Source: an uncultured Gemmatimonadales bacterium (GTDB lineage: Bacteria > Gemmatimonadota > Glassbacteria > GWA2-58-10). From it: DNA of 64,000 nucleotides. This document shows, one piece after another, positions 10,322-54,819 of this stretch (positions are counted from its first letter, which is position 1; the number at the start of each line of letters is the position of its first letter). The DNA is taken from the NCBI GenBank assembly GCA_964473155.1, contig CAYYNT010000003.1, positions 69,839 to 133,838 of the forward strand, written 5' to 3'. The notes beneath the pieces are model-generated. The model ran no database searches and was not told the DNA's origin. It saw nothing but the letters and a program-made list of their open reading frames with translations. Both the position numbers and the translations under genes were made by a program.

Positions 10322-10461
10322 TCTCATGGAGCAGAAGCGTGTTAGCGATATAAAAGGAAGACCGCAAAATAATTACATGTCACATAAGATATATTATGTA
10401 AACTTGTCTCTTTGTTTTCTGTCTCGGCTTTCAAATGCTCTCTCTCCCGGCCCCGGCGATT

Positions 10462-10500
10462 AAAAAGCCCTACCGGAGAATCAATCCTCCCCGGCAGGGC
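10462..10500 (-). terminator. rho-independent terminator of the zinc-ribbon membrane protein gene
   Basis: GCCCTGCCGG...CCGGTAGGGC hairpin with one mismatch, followed on the minus strand by TTTTT. Confidence 0.55.
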
Positions 10501-10526
10501 TGCAATGAATACGTTCAAATTTCTTT

Positions 10527-11120
10527 TCAATATCTGTTGCTCGAATACCGGTTTCTGACCACGACGAGCAAAAAGGCAGCAATTCCCAGAGTTATTATTA
10601 TCAGGCCGGCCTGCATATAGAACTCTGAAGATATGTTTTTGGCGAGAAACATTATGTAAGCCGTGGTCAAAATGAGTATCCCGCTCACCACGATAAAGGT
10701 TGCCAGGATTTTGCCTTTTTCCTGACGTTGATAACTCAGGCAGAAATTGCATCTAACCGCGCGGGCATCTATTTCCTCGCCGCAGAAGCAGCACCTTTTC
10801 ATCCCCTCCGACACCGGGACCTTCTCAATCTCTGTTTGTTCGCCACGCTTATTGAACCAGGATAAAAAGGTCCCGATACCATAGACCATGAAGCCTAAAT
10901 ATGCCAGAATGATACCACTGCGCATCAGGGTAATAGTTGTCTGGTTGAAATTGGACAGATACCAGATATAGCTTGCAGCCCCAACCATTATCCCGCAAAG
11001 CATCATGCCTGTCCCCCAGAACTGTCCCTCGTTGATTTTGGGCCGGATATAAGACATGCACCGGGGACATTTGATCGCGTGATCGTTGATCTGCGAATAA
11101 CAAACAGGACATTCTTTCAT
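10527..11120 (-). CDS. membrane protein with two zinc-ribbon modules and four predicted TM helices (internal duplication)
   Basis: CPVC...KCPRC then 2 TM, then CCFCGEE...RCNFC then 2 TM. Lower GC. Located 42 nt downstream of the MotB-like gene. Confidence 0.6.
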   Translation of the reverse strand: MKECPVCYSQINDHAIKCPRCMSYIRPKINEGQFWGTGMMLCGIMVGAASYIWYLSNFNQTTITLMRSGIILAYLGFMVYGIGTFLSWFNKRGEQTEIEKVPVSEGMKRCCFCGEEIDARAVRCNFCLSYQRQEKGKILATFIVVSGILILTTAYIMFLAKNISSEFYMQAGLIIITLGIAAFLLVVVRNRYSSNRY

Positions 11121-11162
11121 ATTCGCTCCGCAGATGGCAGTGGATGGTGCATGGCTTAAAAA

Positions 11163-11873
11163 CTACATCAGAGGATCCTGTGTAATCGCATATTCTATAA
11201 AAATTTCTATTCTTCTGTTTTTCTGGCGGTTTGCCTCGGAGTCGTTCGGGTAAGCAGGACGGTACTCACCATAGGATACGATTGAGAATCTCTTCGGGTC
11301 AAGTTTCGCATAGTTCATGCCGAACCTGGCTACGTTGCGGGCACGGGCATAAGCGAGCTCCCAGTTGGAACTGTACACGCTGTTGCTGATCACCGTATCA
11401 TCGGTGTGGCCGCATACCCGGATAGTGTTTTCCCAGTCCTTTGCCAGTTCGAATATTTTGGCCAGGTATGGCATCCCCTGCGGACGAATCTCGGCGCTGC
11501 CCGGCTCGAAAAGAATGGGAGTCAGAATACGGACTGCAATGCCCTGGCTTGTAATAACTACATTCAGACCGTTCTGCTGCCCCTGAGTCTCGGCGAAATC
11601 CTGCAATGCAGTGACAGCCATGGAAAGTTCGCCGATATTGACGTCACTAACTTTCCATACGATAGCTTCTTTCATCCCGAGCGTCACAGCATTTTCGGTC
11701 AGAACGCCAAGAGAACCCTTTAACGAACCGGTGGCTTTGTTGAATTCGTTGGGGTCCGTGGAGGACATCGATACAATCAGGACGAAGAAACACAAAAGGA
11801 GCGACATCAGGTCACTGTAAGTACAGAGCCAGGGCGGCGCCCCTTCAGGACAGTTGCATTCATCCTTGGCCAT
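11163..11873 (-). CDS. MotB/OmpA-family protein (stator-type N-terminal TM with conserved Asp, C-terminal OmpA-like peptidoglycan-binding domain)
   Basis: PPWLCTYSDLMSLLLCFFVLIV resembles the MotB plug/TM with Asp in YSDLM. C-terminal NWELAYARARNVARF...NRRIEIF OmpA-like motif. No motA/exbB/tolQ-like gene in the window. Confidence 0.7.
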   Translation of the reverse strand: MAKDECNCPEGAPPWLCTYSDLMSLLLCFFVLIVSMSSTDPNEFNKATGSLKGSLGVLTENAVTLGMKEAIVWKVSDVNIGELSMAVTALQDFAETQGQQNGLNVVITSQGIAVRILTPILFEPGSAEIRPQGMPYLAKIFELAKDWENTIRVCGHTDDTVISNSVYSSNWELAYARARNVARFGMNYAKLDPKRFSIVSYGEYRPAYPNDSEANRQKNRRIEIFIEYAITQDPLM

Positions 11874-12152
11874 GGCCGTTGTCCGGTTTAATTATGATCT
11901 AATAAAAAAAGATTCTGAAAAGGATAGTTATCATTTTTAGCAAAAAGTGTGCTACTCTCCAGCTTTTTTCAACCGTATGGGGAGAAAATCGTATTCTTCC
12001 CCTGGTTTGATGATCTGAACTAATATCGTCAGTCGCCTCGTCACTCTGTAACTTATTTATACTTTATCAGTACCAGTCCCGTTTGTCAATAAACCGTGGC
12101 ATGGCGCTTGCCAATTTATCTTCCTGATTCTATATTGAAAGACAAAACTGGA

Positions 12153-12794
12153 ATGGAAGGGCTCATGCCGAACATTCTTATAATTTCAGGCATATTCATC
12201 GTGCTAATTTTCATTATCGCGGTGTTTATTGGCCAGCAATTAAGCAACGTCGAAAAAATGAACCTCAGCCGCAAGCCCAAGACGCTGAGTGATAAATTGC
12301 GTGAAAGCGGCATGGCTCCCCTTGAGACTGAAAGATTCCGCGAGATCGTAATGGCAGGCGGCAATCAGGAAGTTGAACCGCTGACGGAGAATACATTCCC
12401 CGGCGCTTCAGTTGCCGAGTCTCCGGACGACATAGCTTTCCGGAATTATGAACTGACCGGCCACCACGTAAATATCGAAGGCAAAGACTTGCAGACAATC
12501 TATTCAGAATATCTCTCCGCAAAAAATCTCAATCCATTCGATATAGAACCGGAATTCACTCTCGGCATAGCTTACATGCGTTTCGCGCAGTATGATAAGG
12601 CTCAGAGTCAGTTCAAAAAAATTGTTGACTCCAAGCCGGAGTACCCGGGTATATTTTATTATCTTGGAGAATCATTGCGCTGTAACGGTCAATATTACGA
12701 GGCCATGAACGCCTACAAGAAATCGTGGGAAATGGATAAAAAAAACAACACGCGCAATGCTGATAATAGAAACCGCCAGGAATTTTTAAGCTGA
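12153..12794 (+). CDS. membrane-anchored TPR-like protein
   Basis: N-terminal TM (ILIISGIFIVLIFIIAVFIG) and C-terminal TPR-like helices (AYMRFAQYDKAQSQFKK..., YYEAMNAYKKS). ATG at 12153 or 12165; GTG at 12096 is less likely. Confidence 0.5.
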   Translation: MEGLMPNILIISGIFIVLIFIIAVFIGQQLSNVEKMNLSRKPKTLSDKLRESGMAPLETERFREIVMAGGNQEVEPLTENTFPGASVAESPDDIAFRNYELTGHHVNIEGKDLQTIYSEYLSAKNLNPFDIEPEFTLGIAYMRFAQYDKAQSQFKKIVDSKPEYPGIFYYLGESLRCNGQYYEAMNAYKKSWEMDKKNNTRNADNRNRQEFLS

Positions 12795-12847: not shown

Positions 12848-13558
12848 ATGAATACAAATAAGGAAACTATTTCCTGTTTTAAGACAGTGGTGGTTCTTTC
12901 TGCAGCCCTTTTTTCGTGCGGAGCGTTATTGGCTCAGGCCGGTCCGAAAATCGAAGCATCAGAGAGTCAATACAGTTTCGGTTCCGTATATCAGGGAACT
13001 GTTGTAAAGCATGTCTTCACTCTGCGAAACGCAGGCAAGGACACGCTCCAAATAGAAAATGTGCGCTCCAGTTGTGGTTGCACAGTTGCCATGGTCGATA
13101 AGAAAAACGTTGCACCTGGAGAAAGCACTCTCGTCGAGGCCAGTTTCAATTCGGATCGTTTTGCAGGGCATGTCAGCAAGGACATTTACGTGCAGTCAAA
13201 TGACCCTGCACAGCCGGTGACAAAGCTATCTCTTACGGGGGAAGTAAAGGTCGATCTCAGCATTTCGCCCGGTACAATTTACTTTTCCGGATTGAAAGAG
13301 GGCGCGCAGGTTACTCGCAAGCTCGCTCTGATAAATACTTCGGAGAATACTATTTCAATCCACGAAATATCCTCGACTGTTCCCGATCTGCGGTTCGAAC
13401 TACCCAAGCTTAAGCTCAAACCGGGCGAAAGAACTGAATTGTCTCTGATAGTGGACAAGGTGACCCGTGACACCAGGCTTACGGGCAACCTGACGATTCA
13501 TATCTCCGGCCCGCAGAAAGAAGTCAATGTCAGGTTGTTCGGCGGATCAATCAACTGA
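12848..13558 (+). CDS. DUF1573-family secreted protein
   Basis: Signal peptide; FTLRNAGKDTLQIENVRSSCGCTVA matches the DUF1573 hallmark (SCGCT). Confidence 0.7.
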   Translation: MNTNKETISCFKTVVVLSAALFSCGALLAQAGPKIEASESQYSFGSVYQGTVVKHVFTLRNAGKDTLQIENVRSSCGCTVAMVDKKNVAPGESTLVEASFNSDRFAGHVSKDIYVQSNDPAQPVTKLSLTGEVKVDLSISPGTIYFSGLKEGAQVTRKLALINTSENTISIHEISSTVPDLRFELPKLKLKPGERTELSLIVDKVTRDTRLTGNLTIHISGPQKEVNVRLFGGSIN

Positions 13559-13643: not shown

Positions 13644-16600
13644 TTATTGCTTCTGCTCTTTGTCCTTCTCAACGTTCAGACGCTCGAAATATTTGCGAAT
13701 AAGGATGTTATAGCTTTCCGGGTAAGTTCCACTCCATTTTTCGAAGAGAGATTCGATCTCGCCTTTTTTCAGGGCCGGGTCCAGAATATCCTTTGGCAAC
13801 GCTGCCGGAGTGACTGCGTTGTATGAGCGCGCAGTTTCGCTTTTTCTCTCGTTATCACCGCTTTCGTTTTTCTTCATCGCACGCTGCGCGCTGAGCATCC
13901 GATCAAGAAGACGCTGCTGCCGTTCAAGGGTTTCGGGGCGCACTCCTTTTTGCAGCATTTCCTGAACAAGATCGTGAGCCTCTTTGTTCATTCCCTCAAG
14001 CGCATCTTTAAGACGGCCGGTTTCACTCGATTGTCCGGCCTGTTCGGCCATACGGGCAAGCTGTTCCTGGATTGCTTTCTGTTCGGCAGCCATCTGACGC
14101 AACATCTCCTGGATCCCCCCAGCCGCCGCCCTTGGAGATGGAAGTCCGGGACCTTCGCCTTGACCGTTCGAGCTCTGCTGACGCGCTTTCCTGTTAAGAT
14201 CTTCCTGATGGCGTGAGAGTTGCTCAAGTTTCTTCAGCATCTGATCCATTCCCACGCCGCTGCCGGATTGCATCATGTTGTCACGGTCTTCAATCAGGCT
14301 GAGCATGCCGGCGTTGATTGCGGCAAGAGCGCCGGACGATGAAAGAAACACCTCCTCCTGGTTACGCTGGTCAGCCGAAAGCTTGTCTACTGTTCCCTCG
14401 CTTCTTGCAACCGCCGCATCCAGTATATCCAGCAACCTTATGCTGATAAAGAAATTGTCTCTTGCCGCGGCGACGATGCCGGACATTACTTTATTCAAGC
14501 CCTCCGAGATTTCCTGCTGAAGGGCAGCCAGCTTGAGAACGTCCGGATGGTTGATATCTGTTTCAACTCGCACCGCTTCTGACAGCTCTTCCTGACGGCG
14601 GGACAGGAAATCCAGATTATCGAAGGCCCTGAGCATCGCCTCGGAGACCTGTTCCCGCCACTTTTTTTTCAGCTCCAGGCTGTAACTTTTCATTTTCCTG
14701 TGGACATTCTCCATTCTGTCGCCCACTTCGCGCTGTCTGCCGACGGCTTTATCGGGACGGGATCCGGACATGTCCCTGCCAATCTCGGAAAAAGCGTTTT
14801 TGAAGAAATCGCGGTCCGGGGAGTTCGACTCTTTCTTCAGACTGTCGGCGAGTTCTTTTTCTCCGGCTTTGTCTAAATTGTTCGCCGCGGACTCCATCCG
14901 CTCGAAGACCTCCGCCGTCATCTCTCTCATCTGTTCATTGGCCTCGCCGGGTTCTTTTCCGGCGAGTTCCATTTCCAGTAAAGATTCTCCCCGCTCTCCA
15001 TTTTCAGACGGCTGTCGCTCCCCCGTCATACTCTCCCCTTCCCCGGAGGGAGATATACTGTCCACCGGGCTTTCCTGCCGAGAGTCCCCTGGACGCGAAT
15101 CAGCTTTTGCTGAATCTGCCTGCTCTATTTGAGCTTGCTTAGCGGAAGAATTTTCATCAGCGCTGTCAGCCAGCATCCGCGCCGCCTCGGCCAACTCACG
15201 GGTCCGGTTGACCAGGAAATCCATCTGTTGCTCGAGCTTGACTTTTTCAAGGACGCTGATTGTCTTGTCGAGTTTATCAAGGAGCTTTTCCTGAGAGTAT
15301 TCCAGCTTGTTCATCTGCTCATTCAGGCTCTTGCGGTCAATCTGTTCGAGTGAACTGTTGATTTTGGAGAGCAGTTCTTTTATCTCATCCGTGGATATTT
15401 CTTCCATCAGTTTCTGCACACGCGAAAGCTTTTCGAGAAGTTCAGGCGAACTCGATTCAGCGCGCTGCAGCCGTTCGATGCTCTCCTTCATCTGACCGGC
15501 CAGCTTCCCAACCTGTTCGGTAATCTGTTTCTGACGTTCCAGGGCCTGGCCCAGACGCTGTTTTTCCTGCCAGTCCATTTCTTTTCCACGTTCCAGCGCC
15601 TCCTGCATCTTCTTGACCTGTTCAAGCGTTTTCTGCCCTTCCTGCCCCAGGTTCTGCAACCGCGAGGCTATCTGTTCCTGCTGCTTTTCACTCTGTTTGA
15701 AAATTTCCTGCATTGAGGGGAAACGCAGACGGTTTTCCGCTGTCGATGCGGCTTTGGGACCGCTGACACGGTCGTTGTCAAGGACCGTAAGACGGTAAAT
15801 GATTGATTCTCCCGGAAGAAGCCGCAGTGCGCTCAAATCCCAGTTATATTGCTCCAGAATATGATCATCGCCTAACGAACCGGACGGCAACAGCAGACTT
15901 TGCTCACTCTCCAGCCTTCCGCCCGCTTTTTCTTTTCTGAAACTCAAGATCACCCGGCTTACTCCGAAATCATCCGCCGCCTCGTACATCAGCGGCTGTA
16001 TCATTTCCTCTCCCAAAGTATAATCAGATTCTGGATAGATCAGCATAACGCGTGGAAGTTCGTCCGGGACAACGATAATCGGATAAGAAAGTGTGTCCCT
16101 GTTGATCAAACCCCAGCGATCGTCAAGCCGAAAACTGTAGCGCGTATCGGCAACCAGATTCAACGTGTCGACAAATTCTCGTTCTCCGCTTAGAGCCAGA
16201 TTACGCATTTCACCGCTTTCAAACCGCAGTTTTGCATGGTTCAGAGGATTGCTTGCTTTTCCATACAGGATCACCCGTGTGCCTCGCAACGCACTTATCG
16301 ACCGGTCACGCGTTGTTTCCCAAGGCGATAGAGCTGAATATTGCGGGTATTCATAGCGCAACCTCAGGTCAGTGACGAAAGGATTGCTGATTACTTTCAC
16401 TTTGAACGTATCGCTGACCGCATTCCATTGTGATACAACATAACTGAGGTCATTCTCTACTGTTCCCAGATCGAGACGGTATTCATACTGGTCACGCCAA
16501 TATTGCATTGTCAGGCTTCGGCTGACCTGCCCGGTCTGCCAGGACTCAAAACGCACAGGCTCGGGGCGGCGCATCGAACCGGCTACCCGCACACAGAGTG

Positions 16601-17267
16601 AATCTCCCCGCATGAGCGTTACGTTGCCGGGACGGACAAAAAGCCTGAAATCCCTTTCCTTCTGGATGAGTCCCATTGGATCGCTCCAGTTCTGCAACAC
16701 CTGCCGCATCATCATGGGATCATAAAGACCAAACGCCAGACAGAGTGTGCCAATCACGATCACTGTCAGGCGACGGCGGCGGGTGCGGTCTGCCTGTAAT
16801 GCCTTGAGTCCCTCGAGAATCATCCGTCGAGAGGTCGGCTCTTTTACAGCCGAGGCTGTGCTTTCAAGAGCCGCCGAGACAAGTTCATTTGAATAAAGCG
16901 TTCCGGATTGGAATGTGCATTGCAGGAATTCAAGAGCGGATTCAAGTCCGTTTCTCAGGCCGGGGGCAACCAGATCGCAACGCCTGGCGACAGAGGAAAG
17001 TCTGCCGTATTTCTTCCAGGCGTTCCAGATGCCGCGCCCGGCAATGGCAACGAAAACAGCAATAAGGGATACGATCAGTGCAAGCCGCCAGAGTCCGGGG
17101 AGCCAAAACAGGCTCTCCAGCATTCCAAACAGAAGCAATGCCGCCCCCGAAACACCTGCCAGGCGCAGCAGAATGGCGATCATCTCAGCGCGAACGAGGC
17201 CTGAGCGGATTTCTTTCAAAGCTTGGTTGATGATCTGCGCGGAATATGTTTTGTCGGATTGAGCCAC
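13644..17267 (-). CDS. large membrane-anchored protein with an acidic coiled-coil C-terminal half; DUF4175-like architecture
   Basis: GTG start. Two N-terminal TM helices, a central region of about 400 aa, then about 600 aa of low-complexity Q/E/K-rich coiled coil. The family name is recalled, not verified. Confidence 0.5.
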   Translation of the reverse strand: MAQSDKTYSAQIINQALKEIRSGLVRAEMIAILLRLAGVSGAALLLFGMLESLFWLPGLWRLALIVSLIAVFVAIAGRGIWNAWKKYGRLSSVARRCDLVAPGLRNGLESALEFLQCTFQSGTLYSNELVSAALESTASAVKEPTSRRMILEGLKALQADRTRRRRLTVIVIGTLCLAFGLYDPMMMRQVLQNWSDPMGLIQKERDFRLFVRPGNVTLMRGDSLCVRVAGSMRRPEPVRFESWQTGQVSRSLTMQYWRDQYEYRLDLGTVENDLSYVVSQWNAVSDTFKVKVISNPFVTDLRLRYEYPQYSALSPWETTRDRSISALRGTRVILYGKASNPLNHAKLRFESGEMRNLALSGEREFVDTLNLVADTRYSFRLDDRWGLINRDTLSYPIIVVPDELPRVMLIYPESDYTLGEEMIQPLMYEAADDFGVSRVILSFRKEKAGGRLESEQSLLLPSGSLGDDHILEQYNWDLSALRLLPGESIIYRLTVLDNDRVSGPKAASTAENRLRFPSMQEIFKQSEKQQEQIASRLQNLGQEGQKTLEQVKKMQEALERGKEMDWQEKQRLGQALERQKQITEQVGKLAGQMKESIERLQRAESSSPELLEKLSRVQKLMEEISTDEIKELLSKINSSLEQIDRKSLNEQMNKLEYSQEKLLDKLDKTISVLEKVKLEQQMDFLVNRTRELAEAARMLADSADENSSAKQAQIEQADSAKADSRPGDSRQESPVDSISPSGEGESMTGERQPSENGERGESLLEMELAGKEPGEANEQMREMTAEVFERMESAANNLDKAGEKELADSLKKESNSPDRDFFKNAFSEIGRDMSGSRPDKAVGRQREVGDRMENVHRKMKSYSLELKKKWREQVSEAMLRAFDNLDFLSRRQEELSEAVRVETDINHPDVLKLAALQQEISEGLNKVMSGIVAAARDNFFISIRLLDILDAAVARSEGTVDKLSADQRNQEEVFLSSSGALAAINAGMLSLIEDRDNMMQSGSGVGMDQMLKKLEQLSRHQEDLNRKARQQSSNGQGEGPGLPSPRAAAGGIQEMLRQMAAEQKAIQEQLARMAEQAGQSSETGRLKDALEGMNKEAHDLVQEMLQKGVRPETLERQQRLLDRMLSAQRAMKKNESGDNERKSETARSYNAVTPAALPKDILDPALKKGEIESLFEKWSGTYPESYNILIRKYFERLNVEKDKEQKQ

Positions 17268-17273
17268 AATCTC

Positions 17274-17984
17274 TCACTCACGGGTCAGGGCATAGAAAAA
17301 AATATTCACTCCCATCCTGAGAGCGCTTTCGCGAATCGGTTCCGGATCCTTGTGCACTTGTGGATCTTCCCAACCGTCACCCAGGTCAGTATTCAGGCTG
17401 TAAAACACAACCAGACGGCCATCGACGAATATTCCGAGACCTTTTGGCGGTCCGCCGTCATGTTCGTGAACTTTGGGCAATCCATCCGGGAAATCAAAGA
17501 CAGAATGATAAATTGGAAAATCAAATGGAATTTCCACAAACTCTTTATCCGGAAACACCTTTTTCATCTCACGGCGGAAACCGGCATCCATCCCGTAATT
17601 GTCATCTGCATGCAGGAAACCGCCTTCGCTGAGATATTTCCTCAACCGGATGGCTTCTTCTTCATCGAATATTATATTCCCGTGGCCGTTCAGGTACAGA
17701 TAAGGGTGACGGAAAAGCTCCGGGCTTTTTAAACGCACTTGAGCCTCTTGCTTGTCGACCTCCAATCCGGTATACTTTCTGATCGCGTCGAGCAGGTTGA
17801 TCAGTGAAGAAGGGTTTGAGTACCAGTCTCCACCGCCCTCGTACATCACTCTCGCGATCGTCATCACCGCCGGGCTGGAGGATGAACGGCCAGGAGACTG
17901 TCCCTCAGCCGGCAGATAAAGCAGCAGTCCGGCGGAAACGATCAATGCGGCGACAGTGTTTTTTATCTTCGTCTTTTTCATCAT
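17274..17984 (-). CDS. secreted protein, DUF4159-like
   Basis: Start taken at the internal MMKKTKIKN... with a signal peptide (the longer ORF would overlap the divergent gene). 6 nt upstream of the large protein's GTG, which suggests an operon. Confidence 0.5.
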   Translation of the reverse strand: MMKKTKIKNTVAALIVSAGLLLYLPAEGQSPGRSSSSPAVMTIARVMYEGGGDWYSNPSSLINLLDAIRKYTGLEVDKQEAQVRLKSPELFRHPYLYLNGHGNIIFDEEEAIRLRKYLSEGGFLHADDNYGMDAGFRREMKKVFPDKEFVEIPFDFPIYHSVFDFPDGLPKVHEHDGGPPKGLGIFVDGRLVVFYSLNTDLGDGWEDPQVHKDPEPIRESALRMGVNIFFYALTRE

Positions 17985-18017
17985 TGTTCTGAAAAGTGCA
18001 GTAATCAACCGGGGTTT

Positions 18018-18497
18018 ATGGTCATGGATGCCGAGGTGCGCCGGAAAATCTATCTGGTCCTTTTTCTGTTTGCCGTCTATACGGCAGTCTGCTTCTGGGT
18101 TCCTTACAGCAAGCTCTGGGTGATGAAAGACCTGATGCAGACTCAATCCCGTATGTTTTTTGCCACCCAGTCAGTCGAACAGGTTCACAAATACTTGAGC
18201 GGCAAAGCGGCTGAACTCGAGCTGGATGTACGGCCCGAGGATATAAAGGTACAGACTATCAACGGGGAAATAATCTATATCGAATTAAGCTGGAAAGCTC
18301 CGGTCAATATACTTCTGTTCCGCACCAGTCTGGATTTCAGTCCCAGGATTTTCGGCCTGATCCGTGGTTTCGAAAACTTTTCAACCGGGAGCGAGTTGCC
18401 GGATAGCCTGGTTTCCGAACTGTCTGACAGCACTACCCGCTTCCTGAAAAACCGGAATGTGCTCGGGCGTTCTATTAAAAATTTCTTTTCCCGCTGA
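18018..18497 (+). CDS. hypothetical membrane-anchored protein
   Basis: N-terminal TM (IYLVLFLFAVYTAVCFWV) with reasonable coding composition. Divergent from the DUF4159-like gene. Confidence 0.4.
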   Translation: MVMDAEVRRKIYLVLFLFAVYTAVCFWVPYSKLWVMKDLMQTQSRMFFATQSVEQVHKYLSGKAAELELDVRPEDIKVQTINGEIIYIELSWKAPVNILLFRTSLDFSPRIFGLIRGFENFSTGSELPDSLVSELSDSTTRFLKNRNVLGRSIKNFFSR

Positions 18498-53573: not shown

Positions 53574-54098
53574 TTAATGCTTTTGTGGCCTGCATTTGAT
53601 CCGGTTCATTTCCTGTTTCATCAGATCGAGGATCGCCCGCAGTTTGTTTTCATGCTCCTGCTCCTGAGCCGCAAGCATCTCGAACAGCTTGCGGGTCAAA
53701 TCGCGGCTGGAAAACGCCGCCGTGCTTGAATACAATTCTGCTGCGGCATGTTCCTTCGGTATCATCCGCATGACAATTTCAAGCACTTTCTCGACATCCC
53801 TGCATTTTTCTTCCTCGGACAAATCTTCCTCATGGATGGCCAGCGATTCCTCGCCCACGGACATTGTCTTGCCGCGCGCCTCGTTCAGCTCCTGTTGAAG
53901 GATTTCCAGCGCGGCCCTGAGCTTGGCCTCATGCTGCTCCTCCTGCTCAGCCAGCCTGGAGAACAGCACCCGGACCATCTCCGACCGGGCCTCCTGCGCC
54001 GTGGTCAGGAAAGCGTCGTGCGCCTGGCGCTCCTTGGGGATGCTGCGCACCACCACCTCGATCATGCGCTCCAGTTGTTTGACAATTTCCTTATCCAT
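53574..54098 (-). CDS. ferritin-like diiron protein built from two homologous half-bundles (rubrerythrin-like)
   Basis: Internal duplication: ...SRLAEQEEQHEAKLRAAL... and ...EMLAAQEQEHENKLRAIL..., each half carrying an E...ExxH pair. Confidence 0.55.
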   Translation of the reverse strand: MDKEIVKQLERMIEVVVRSIPKERQAHDAFLTTAQEARSEMVRVLFSRLAEQEEQHEAKLRAALEILQQELNEARGKTMSVGEESLAIHEEDLSEEEKCRDVEKVLEIVMRMIPKEHAAAELYSSTAAFSSRDLTRKLFEMLAAQEQEHENKLRAILDLMKQEMNRIKCRPQKH

Positions 54099-54111
54099 TT
54101 ATGGCTCCGGT

Positions 54112-54819
54112 TCAGGAGGGGAATGTTATCTTGCCGCCGAAATATCCGAGTCCAATCACTGTCGGGGCCAAGGCCAGGACAGCCATGGAGTACGTCCAGT
54201 ACCAGGAGCCGCTTCCGGCCATCACTGCTTCGGTCTTTGCGAAAAGAATTGCAAAAGCGGCGAGCAGCAACACTGCCAGCAGAATAGACAGATAGGTTTT
54301 CACGCGATAGATATGCGTCCAGATACCGCTGTAATTGTAGTACCAGCTCAACAGTCCCGTGGTAATGGATACCGGAGTCACGAGTGCGGCGACAATCAGG
54401 TTGTAATAAGCAGCCTCTGTCATATGGGGCAGTGGCGTAACCATACCGAGGAAAGTGAAAAGCGAAGCCGAAATACACAGGGCTATCGGAAAATGAACGG
54501 AGATCGGGTGCGGGTGCCGGTCCAGTATTTTCGACACCAGCCGCGACGGCGTTTTCAGCGCGGTCTGCATGGCCGGGGATTTTTCCCCGGGACCGATCTC
54601 GGCTACAACCGCAAACTTATCCAGCACCTCTGCGCCGTGCGGAGCGGCTTTAATGGACTCAGTCAGGTCCCTTCCGGCCTGGTGTGTCTTGAAATGCTTT
54701 CCGTTCCGCCATAACCGGCTCGTGGAGACATCATAAATTTTGCCCTCGAAAGCCACATAGGATTTTTTTCCATCAACACCATCGTGTTTCTGAAGTTCAT
54801 CCTGTTCCATGCGGTCCAT
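54112..54819 (-). CDS. cytochrome-b5-like domain fused to a DUF2231-like 4-TM membrane domain
   Basis: N-terminal KSYVAFEGKIYDVSTSRLWRNGKH...HQAGRDLTE (cyt b5/steroid-binding-like fold) followed by four TM helices. Confidence 0.45.
   Translation of the reverse strand: MDRMEQDELQKHDGVDGKKSYVAFEGKIYDVSTSRLWRNGKHFKTHQAGRDLTESIKAAPHGAEVLDKFAVVAEIGPGEKSPAMQTALKTPSRLVSKILDRHPHPISVHFPIALCISASLFTFLGMVTPLPHMTEAAYYNLIVAALVTPVSITTGLLSWYYNYSGIWTHIYRVKTYLSILLAVLLLAAFAILFAKTEAVMAGSGSWYWTYSMAVLALAPTVIGLGYFGGKITFPS

Follow-up and report, generated by a model that had tools for sequence, protein, structure and literature searches.

To our knowledge, very few organisms have flagellar stators that combine one MotA with two MotBs. 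In Aquifex aeolicus, chimeras of both MotBs function with a single MotA (PMC4525482), and in the stators of solved structure it is well established that the helix of the B subunit is enclosed by a ring of A subunits (reviewed in PMC9389320). We describe here a two-gene module within a stretch of 64,000 nucleotides (hereafter the window), taken from contig CAYYNT010000003.1 (GenBank assembly GCA_964473155.1) of an uncultured Gemmatimonadales bacterium belonging to the Glassbacteria, which are treated as a class of Gemmatimonadota in comparative genomics (PMC11596202). The module consists of motB2, coding for a second MotB, and a downstream gene for a protein with predicted zinc ribbons and four transmembrane (TM) helices, herein designated ZnR-4TM. 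On balance, and with limited confidence, we favor the reading that MotB2 is an alternative stator B-subunit sharing the flagellar MotA and that the co-transcribed ZnR-4TM is its accessory. The features of motB2 in the window are as follows.

11163-11873, minus strand: motB2, putative alternative stator B-subunit of 236 amino acid residues, with MotB_plug and OmpA above the Pfam cut-offs
11763-11837, minus strand: TM helix of MotB2, residues 13-37, with the channel Asp21, assigned by alignment and by identity to MotB1
11694-11762, minus strand: plug and proximal linker of MotB2, residues 38-60, diverged from MotB1
11214-11513, minus strand: OmpA-like peptidoglycan-binding domain of MotB2, residues 121-220, covering profile positions 1-98 of 98 of Pfam OmpA

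The gene at 11163-11873 encodes a bona fide stator B-type protein without an adjacent A subunit. The initial annotation of the window had recognized a MotB-like protein with the aspartate of the plug/TM segment and an OmpA-like domain, in good agreement with our profile searches, in which MotB2 gave 61.5 bits against Pfam MotB_plug (PF13677; cut-off 24) for residues 5-54 and 62.9 bits against Pfam OmpA (PF00691; cut-off 27.2) for residues 121-220. The TM helix reads PPWLCTYSDLMSLLLCFFVLIVSMS, and its channel Asp at position 21, within the motif TYSDLM, shows no variation across 24 aligned MotBs. In this alignment G155, D158, N170, L173, R177 and A178 of the OmpA domain are also invariant, while F44, A47, G49, L51, G53 and G56 of the plug are conserved alike in MotB2 and in its paralogue MotB1, described below. 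The best NCBIfam matches of MotB2 are the MotB, MotS and MotD models with 105-181 bits, and none of the NCBIfam equivalog cut-offs is reached (PRK08944, 180.9 bits versus 259; MotS, MotD and MotB equivalogs, 105-142 bits versus cut-offs of 264-312). The annotation was also right in finding no MotA/ExbB/TolQ-type partner nearby, since a hydropathy screen combined with Pfam analysis of the ten likeliest multi-TM open reading frames of the 64 kb detected no MotA, ExbB or TolQ gene.

After a MotB search, the orthologues of MotB2 formed 48 clusters with 61-100% identity to the window protein, followed by a second tier at 42-46% identity that includes Glassbacteria-labelled proteins, hereafter MotB1. 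The gene for MotB1 is located within a canonical flagellar operon, FlgE-FlbD-MotA-MotB1-FliL-FliM-FliN, in L007, L008 and L010 (L numbers are our own locus designations), and operons of the type FlbD-MotA-MotB1-FliL-FliM-FliN indicate flagellated bacteria with a canonical stator. The two paralogues were found together in sample SRR6476076 (MotB1 in L011, MotB2 in L013), in sample 3300031949 (L008 and L004, respectively) and in the sample of the Ga0272442 contigs (L033 and L029, respectively), and in the window lineage MotB1 and MotA are on a 228-kb contig and MotB2 and ZnR-4TM on a 150-kb contig, both of NCBI source. Among the best 120 matches of a MotA search, there is one Glassbacteria group of about 62 clusters with 69-99% identity, below which the identity is 60% or less and the named matches are from Calditrichota or KSB1. 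As judged from the longest-contig sizes listed, the MotA clusters coincide with MotB1 clusters and never with MotB2 clusters.

In order to compare MotB2 with MotB1 by region, sequence identities were determined for 42 MotB2, 31 MotB1 and 36 other MotBs, and a smaller set gave results in agreement. In the following lines, the last two values are for MotB2 and MotB1, in this order, against the other MotBs.

TM helix, residues 13-37: MotB2 against MotB1, 0.92; within MotB2, 0.91; within MotB1, 0.94; against others, 0.59 and 0.61
Plug, residues 38-60: MotB2 against MotB1, 0.31; within MotB2, 0.77; within MotB1, 0.74; against others, 0.36 and 0.38
Linker, residues 61-100: MotB2 against MotB1, 0.26; within MotB2, 0.72; within MotB1, 0.73; against others, 0.16 and 0.16
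OmpA region, residues 101-236: MotB2 against MotB1, 0.47; within MotB2, 0.73; within MotB1, 0.73; against others, 0.44 and 0.43

Since the A-subunit ring encloses the B-subunit helix, one and the same MotA is the best explanation for a MotB2 helix that tracks the helix of MotB1, and as far as can be judged from these sequences it is likely that MotB2 shares the flagellar MotA. The initial annotation had considered that its proposal of a self-contained window pair would fall if a MotA encoded elsewhere were the conserved partner of this MotB. The canonical MotA and MotB1 indeed exist, and the TM identity points to a partnership of this MotA with MotB2. Within the first 40 codons of two same-sample pairs, 33-35 residues are identical with 10-13 synonymous differences, indicating that the TM identity is held by selection at the protein level and not by recent copying. 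Recent gene conversion was thus rejected as its cause, about a third of the identical codons differing synonymously; an older conversion tract might still be present over codons 5-15 in the window lineage. Lineage-specific states of the N-terminus are common to both paralogues in four of the five same-sample pairs, including ECNCPEGAPPW..TYSD in the window lineage, GSPAWM in the Ga0272442 sample and a KCPEC insertion in another. After neighbor-joining of the periplasmic region with 100 bootstraps, the MotB2 clade was supported by 100/100 and the separation of MotB2 plus MotB1 from the others by 93/100. We do not rely on this tree for sisterhood of MotB2 and MotB1, because the others form one tight group and the tree is a three-clade split, but the periplasmic distances (1.08 versus 1.22-1.26) mildly favor a duplication within the lineage.

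In both Glassbacteria MotB paralogues, the short N-terminal tail on the cytoplasmic side contains a CxC motif (KCEC or ECNC), at residues 6-8 of MotB2 (window 11850-11858, minus strand) and also in MotB1 of L007, L008 and L010. The motif was not seen in the related MotBs from other phyla within the 24-MotB alignment. In a MotB dimer it would gather four cysteines, a possible site for metal binding or redox chemistry.

The second gene of the module and the elements that link it to motB2 are the following.

10527-11120, minus strand: ZnR-4TM, zinc-ribbon four-TM protein of 197 residues, putative lineage-specific accessory membrane protein as judged from its homologues and its adjacency to motB2
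10824-11120, minus strand: repeat 1 of ZnR-4TM, with a predicted Cys4 ribbon (C4, C7, C18, C21), the NEGQFWGT motif and TM1-TM2
10527-10823, minus strand: repeat 2 of ZnR-4TM, with a predicted Cys4 ribbon (C110, C113, C124, C127), the QE(R/K)GK motif and TM3-TM4
11121-11162, minus strand: spacer of 42 nt between motB2 and the ZnR-4TM gene, with GGAG at 11126-11129, as read from the sequence
10456-10501, minus strand: intrinsic terminator closing the two-gene unit, a hairpin at 10501-10466 with a T tract

In all 19 related loci, the ZnR-4TM gene comes next after motB2 on the same strand, tens of nt away; 13 of these are distinct loci from genomes or assemblies and 6 come from a metagenome scan seeded with MotB2. 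With this finding, the concern raised at the initial annotation that the pair might never co-occur in other genomes is removed. MotA was located upstream of motB2 in none of the 19 loci, whereas it precedes MotB in 70 of the 71 other loci of the same scan whose 5' sequence was long enough. The pair is intact where one or the other flank is rearranged, as in L001 with its replaced downstream flank, and also in loci from which an upstream Crp-like gene, described below, is gone. The two genes of the window had been described as co-transcribed with an own terminator, and the sequence makes this probable: GGAG sits 5 nt ahead of the ATG of the ZnR-4TM gene, the spacer contains no credible terminator, and 25 nt past the stop codon of the second gene begins a hairpin with a 6-nt loop and a stem of 15 bp, 9 of them G-C, ahead of TTTTTAATCG. 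Promoter-like sites for the minus strand were found upstream of motB2 at 12089-12061 and 11919-11891, and a scan of the locus with Rfam for riboswitches or leaders gave nothing credible.

ZnR-4TM is a new, lineage-specific protein family. Its homologues form 38 clusters, all full length and with one shared architecture, and those with names are from Candidatus Glassbacteria except for one metagenome-assembled genome (MAG) labelled 'archaeon'. A profile search of 1.8 billion representatives at 50% identity gave a single full-length ZnR-4TM cluster and, beyond the family, merely generic zinc-ribbon matches of the type MKKCPFCAEEI.... Searches of Pfam and NCBIfam gave nothing above sub-threshold zinc-ribbon or TM noise, Pfam DZR and Zn_ribbon scoring 13.5-15.5 bits, under their cut-offs, and the search of its profile against PDB sequences gave L40e ribosomal ribbons alone (E 0.2). 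PADLOC made no defence-system assignment for the locus, and none of the papers searched combined MotB, stator and zinc ribbon.

The duplicated organization that had been noted for this protein, a Cys4 ribbon plus two TM helices repeated twice, was confirmed after alignment of the two halves to each other (hhalign probability 98.3%, E 2e-14, 32% identity over 73 columns). All eight cysteines (C4, C7, C18, C21, C110, C113, C124 and C127) are invariant among 33 homologues, a pattern that predicts two Cys4 zinc ribbons; E31-G36 is also invariant in the homologue alignment, and TM3 is nearly so. AlphaFold2 with the family alignment gave a model with a mean pLDDT (predicted local distance difference test) of 75.5, which shows long helices at 31-56, 60-99, 135-159 and 165-192 plus two small beta ribbons. 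Lysine plus arginine residues number 5 in the N-terminus, 10 in the middle loop and 2 in the C-terminus, versus 0 and 1 in the two short loops, and this distribution indicates that both termini and both zinc ribbons are cytoplasmic. The model and the charge distribution thus bear out the superficially MotA-like four-TM topology that had been pointed out. The helices abound in Gly, Ser and Thr and are free of acidic residues. The cytoplasmic middle loop is of about 45 residues, and the periplasmic loops are of only 8-9 residues, so that any contact with MotB2 would be made within the membrane or the cytoplasm.

In most relatives, a third gene of 325-344 codons is located directly 5' of motB2 on the same strand (for instance L003:4186-5190, L005:4148-5182, L018:3455-4456 and L019:4153-5154). 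Its product carries a domain for binding of cyclic nucleotide monophosphate (cNMP; 81 bits), aligns through residues 8-185 to Crp/Fnr regulators (e.g. 3D0S and 4CYD; E about 4e-14) and ends in about 150 further residues that are conserved but match no family. This wide occurrence indicates that the ancestral unit was composed of the Crp-like gene, motB2 and the ZnR-4TM gene. The window, L017 and L023 lack the Crp-like gene, of which L001 keeps a remnant of 69 codons; in the window, no remnant was detected in the 222-bp upstream spacer or in the rest of the sequence. The window lineage has lost the gene for the Crp-like regulator and keeps the last two genes.

The region on the upstream side of motB2 carries the following features.

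11874-12095, no strand assigned: divergent intergenic region 5' of motB2 (222 bp), the place of the Crp-like gene in most relatives
12096-12794, plus strand: TM-anchored TPR protein (Pfam TPR_2), divergent conserved neighbor
12848-13558, plus strand: secreted DUF1573/Ig-like protein (Pfam DUF1573, 116 bits), conserved neighbor

The common order of the related loci is DUF1573 and TPR genes in one direction, then divergently the Crp-like gene (where present), motB2 and the ZnR-4TM gene, and then the gene for LeuRS facing them. LeuRS is downstream in most sufficiently long loci, with PrmC and AroA next where the annotation reaches, and the TPR and DUF1573 genes adjoin the module in all loci reaching them, even with different outer flanks; these two genes might belong to the same functional block as the motB2 pair. 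The synteny is kept in relatives with just 49-60% identity of ZnR-4TM, and the related loci include Gemmatimonadales MAGs. The initial annotation had observed that 10.3-12.8 kb is lower in GC than its flanks and took this as a sign of acquisition. The observation itself is accurate, as no other 2.5-kb stretch of the window is lower in GC (46.2% versus 54.0%; 0.5th percentile), the interval of the pair alone (10462-11873) being at the 10th percentile. The conclusion, however, does not follow: the GC content at third codon positions (GC3) of motB2 and the ZnR-4TM gene is 0.59-0.60 versus 0.62 for the window genes (standard deviation 0.06), a distance of about half a standard deviation at most, and in three other lineages the two genes are likewise GC-poor compared with LeuRS or another flanking gene. 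The synteny throughout the clade and the host-like GC3 indicate that the module was not recently acquired, the low GC being attributable to the amino acid composition of membrane-protein genes and to AT-rich spacers. The motB2/ZnR-4TM module has been inherited vertically.

Some further observations were made on these loci. The charge distribution of the protein encoded at 12096-12794 (plus strand) suggests a cytoplasmic TPR domain. Beyond the DUF1573 gene, window 13644-18146 (minus strand) encodes a 1207-residue protein with a long Glu/Lys/Gln-rich center and a weak DUF4175 match, followed by a DUF4159 protein, and homologues of the 1207-residue protein flank the module in L001 and L005. In L001 a Transposase_mut fragment (L001:6664-6942) lies directly 3' of the ZnR-4TM gene and marks the break of the LeuRS synteny, and in L023 (8736-11257) LeuRS matches in three separate pieces, suggesting frameshifts or assembly errors. 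L018 (DATKXY010000273.1), from the MAG labelled 'archaeon', carries the module and bacterial flagellar MotA/MotB (P0006, P0100 and P0354), this bin evidently being mislabelled. A three-TM ExbB-like candidate at 54112-54819 of the window was rejected as an A subunit, since it is a Cyt-b5/DUF2231 membrane fusion protein, encoded beside a rubrerythrin (53574-54819, minus strand). In other metagenomic lineages, we noted MotA-MotB-MotB tandems of the Aquifex type (L059:2332-4687 and L081:3306-5369), and in L039:3929-6898 a MotB-FliL-FliM-FliN array following an ABC-transporter gene with no MotA in about 3.9 kb of upstream DNA, which makes it another flagellar MotB apart from its MotA.

According to the reading that we favor, MotB2 would be expressed from its own locus and promoter and would assemble with the ordinary flagellar MotA encoded elsewhere, giving a second stator type, MotA5-MotB2, in which the channel and axle would be those of the MotB1 stator and the plug, linker and wall-anchoring domain would be different. 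The ancestral Crp/Fnr-like gene would suggest a conditional, cyclic-nucleotide-dependent use of this stator, with a transcriptional control that the Crp-like architecture of its product makes plausible. ZnR-4TM would form an inner-membrane bundle of four helices showing two Cys4 zinc ribbons to the cytoplasm, and would most likely associate with the MotB2-containing stator or its assembly intermediates without replacing MotA. Its action on the assembly or activity of this stator is proposed tentatively. Several points weigh against this reading. The contacts of MotB2 with MotA and of ZnR-4TM with the stator are deduced from sequences; the copy number of MotA was estimated from the best 120 matches, and a second, divergent MotA with less than about 55% identity is possible; and it is from shared samples and from agreement of the sources in the databases that MotB1 and MotB2 are taken to belong to one genome. 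In addition, some of the N-terminal states common to both paralogues could stem from old gene conversion and not from a shared partner, the Crp-like protein with its extension of about 150 residues might act on proteins and not on DNA, and adjacency within a strongly syntenic clade is weaker functional evidence than adjacency across distant phyla.

The initial annotation had gone further and hinted at ZnR-4TM as a possible MotA-like partner, which would place its helices round the MotB2 dimer in a MotA-independent, peptidoglycan-anchored complex for ion conduction or signalling. Such a partner would fit the strict adjacency and probable co-transcription in 19 of 19 loci, the four TM helices with both termini inside and a cytoplasmic middle loop as in MotA, the almost invariant TM3, and the absence of motA from the 64 kb. 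However, ZnR-4TM gave no match to PF01618 (MotA_ExbB) at E values up to 0.1, hhalign against an alignment of 18 MotA sequences from the lineage and its relatives gave a probability of 0.26% over 14 columns, and the best Foldseek match in PDB had an E value of 0.34, with no MotA, ExbB, TolQ, GldL, ZorA or LetA among the top 50. The protein is also nearly without periplasmic surface, its loop of about 45 residues gave no MotA-loop match, and a different partner should have freed or redirected the constraint on the MotB2 helix, which stays identical to that of MotB1. We thus abandoned the MotA-like assignment, and an A-type role of ZnR-4TM is very unlikely. It is quite unlikely, too, that ZnR-4TM represents a hitherto unknown kind of partner for a MotB-type axle, either as a ring round the MotB2 dimer or as an obligatory third subunit, in which latter case its zinc ribbons might couple the MotA-MotB2 motor to a cyclic-nucleotide or redox signal. 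A ring of ZnR-4TM directly around MotB2 would amount to a new class of 5:2-type motor, which the evidence makes unlikely.

Two other explanations keep MotB2 close to the flagellar motor or leave ZnR-4TM aside, and both are unlikely, to a similar degree. MotB2 and ZnR-4TM could act as a brake or decoy that competes with MotB1 for MotA, or locks the stators, upon a cyclic-nucleotide signal, so that the module would remodel or stop the motor and not generate torque. The shared TM segment would permit competition for MotA, the plug and linker are strongly diverged (0.26-0.31), the gene for a cNMP-binding protein is directly upstream in most lineages, and cytoplasmic stator-binding regulators are known, such as the Campylobacter PilZ tetramer FlgX (PMC11725899). 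Nevertheless, neither Asp21 nor the plug motif nor any peptidoglycan-binding residue has been lost from MotB2, so that it looks like a working subunit and not a dead decoy, and the pair persists in lineages without the cNMP-binding gene. Alternatively, ZnR-4TM might be a syntenic bystander of unrelated function and MotB2 a mere spare MotB. Adjacency by itself is indeed weak evidence where synteny extends to LeuRS, PrmC and AroA at several loci and to the TPR and DUF1573 genes at nearly every locus that reaches them, and a zinc ribbon with a TM hairpin is a widespread generic building block; but motB2 and the ZnR-4TM gene have the same orientation and little DNA between them at each locus checked and in the window share a terminator after the second gene, they stay together at L001, with its replaced flank and transposase fragment, and after loss of the upstream gene, and ZnR-4TM was found in Glassbacteria-type loci only, always beside MotB2. 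Practically no weight is left for the view that the module was gained horizontally as an island or is a defence element of the Zorya type, to which the lowest-GC 2.5 kb of the window and weak matches of MotB2 to ZorB models (57 bits or less) might have pointed: class-wide synteny and host-like GC3 effectively refute it, no ZorA, ZorC or ZorD genes are present and the neighbors have no ZorA match, the flagellar MotB models score far above ZorB on MotB2 (130-181 bits), and its nearest paralogue is the flagellar MotB1 of the lineage.

Compared with the known systems, ZnR-4TM bears only a superficial likeness to the A subunits MotA, ExbB, TolQ, ZorA and GldL of the 5:2 motors (PMC9389320), being polytopic with the N-terminus inside and two TM hairpins joined by a cytoplasmic loop, but it is half the size of MotA, internally duplicated and equipped with predicted zinc ribbons, and its gene is downstream of the B-subunit gene. 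With generic zinc ribbon plus TM proteins (DZR/zinc_ribbon_2, TcaA and PqiA/LetA) it shares the N-terminal ribbon MKxCPxC...AxKCxxC. The weak matches to these proteins are confined to the ribbon (NCBIfam PqiA, 16.9 bits versus a cut-off of 562, residues 2-50 only), while the duplicated ribbon-hairpin, the junction motifs NEGQFWGT and QERGK and the linkage to MotB are specific to the Glassbacteria lineage. As accessories, FliL, MotK/MotE of Cereibacter (PMC10954123) and FlgX of Campylobacter (PMC11725899) are likewise small proteins tied to a particular stator, and the position of FliL directly after motB1 in the canonical operon is paralleled by that of the ZnR-4TM gene after motB2. No kinship in sequence or fold to FliL, MotK, MotE or FlgX was found for ZnR-4TM, which differs in being polytopic, with cytoplasmic ribbons and scarcely any periplasmic part.

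The dual stators of Bacillus (MotAB/MotPS), Pseudomonas (MotAB/MotCD) and Vibrio fischeri (MotA1B1/MotA2B2; PMC3948606) likewise include a second B-subunit, with properties different from the first, but these systems duplicate both A and B, whereas in Glassbacteria only B appears to be duplicated. If the reading favored here is true, the module would represent a compact natural remodelling of the stator through a swap of the B-subunit alone, under signal control, and a new protein family would join the stator accessories; it also provides, for a lineage that is uncultured, a set of three or four proteins to be examined structurally and in heterologous hosts. The closest likeness is to the motA-motB1-motB2 arrangement of Aquifex, with two MotBs that are near-identical in the N-terminal/TM part and divergent in the periplasm, together with one detectable MotA; the identities in the TM and periplasmic parts are 97% and 23% in Aquifex (PMC4525482) and 92% and 26-47% in Glassbacteria. 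What is most likely new here, for a system of one MotA and two MotBs, is a second MotB with its own locus and dedicated companions. Both motB genes of Aquifex are within the motA operon, whereas motB2 of Glassbacteria is separate, located between the TPR gene and LeuRS, and has a dedicated ZnR-4TM gene and, ancestrally, a Crp/Fnr-like gene.

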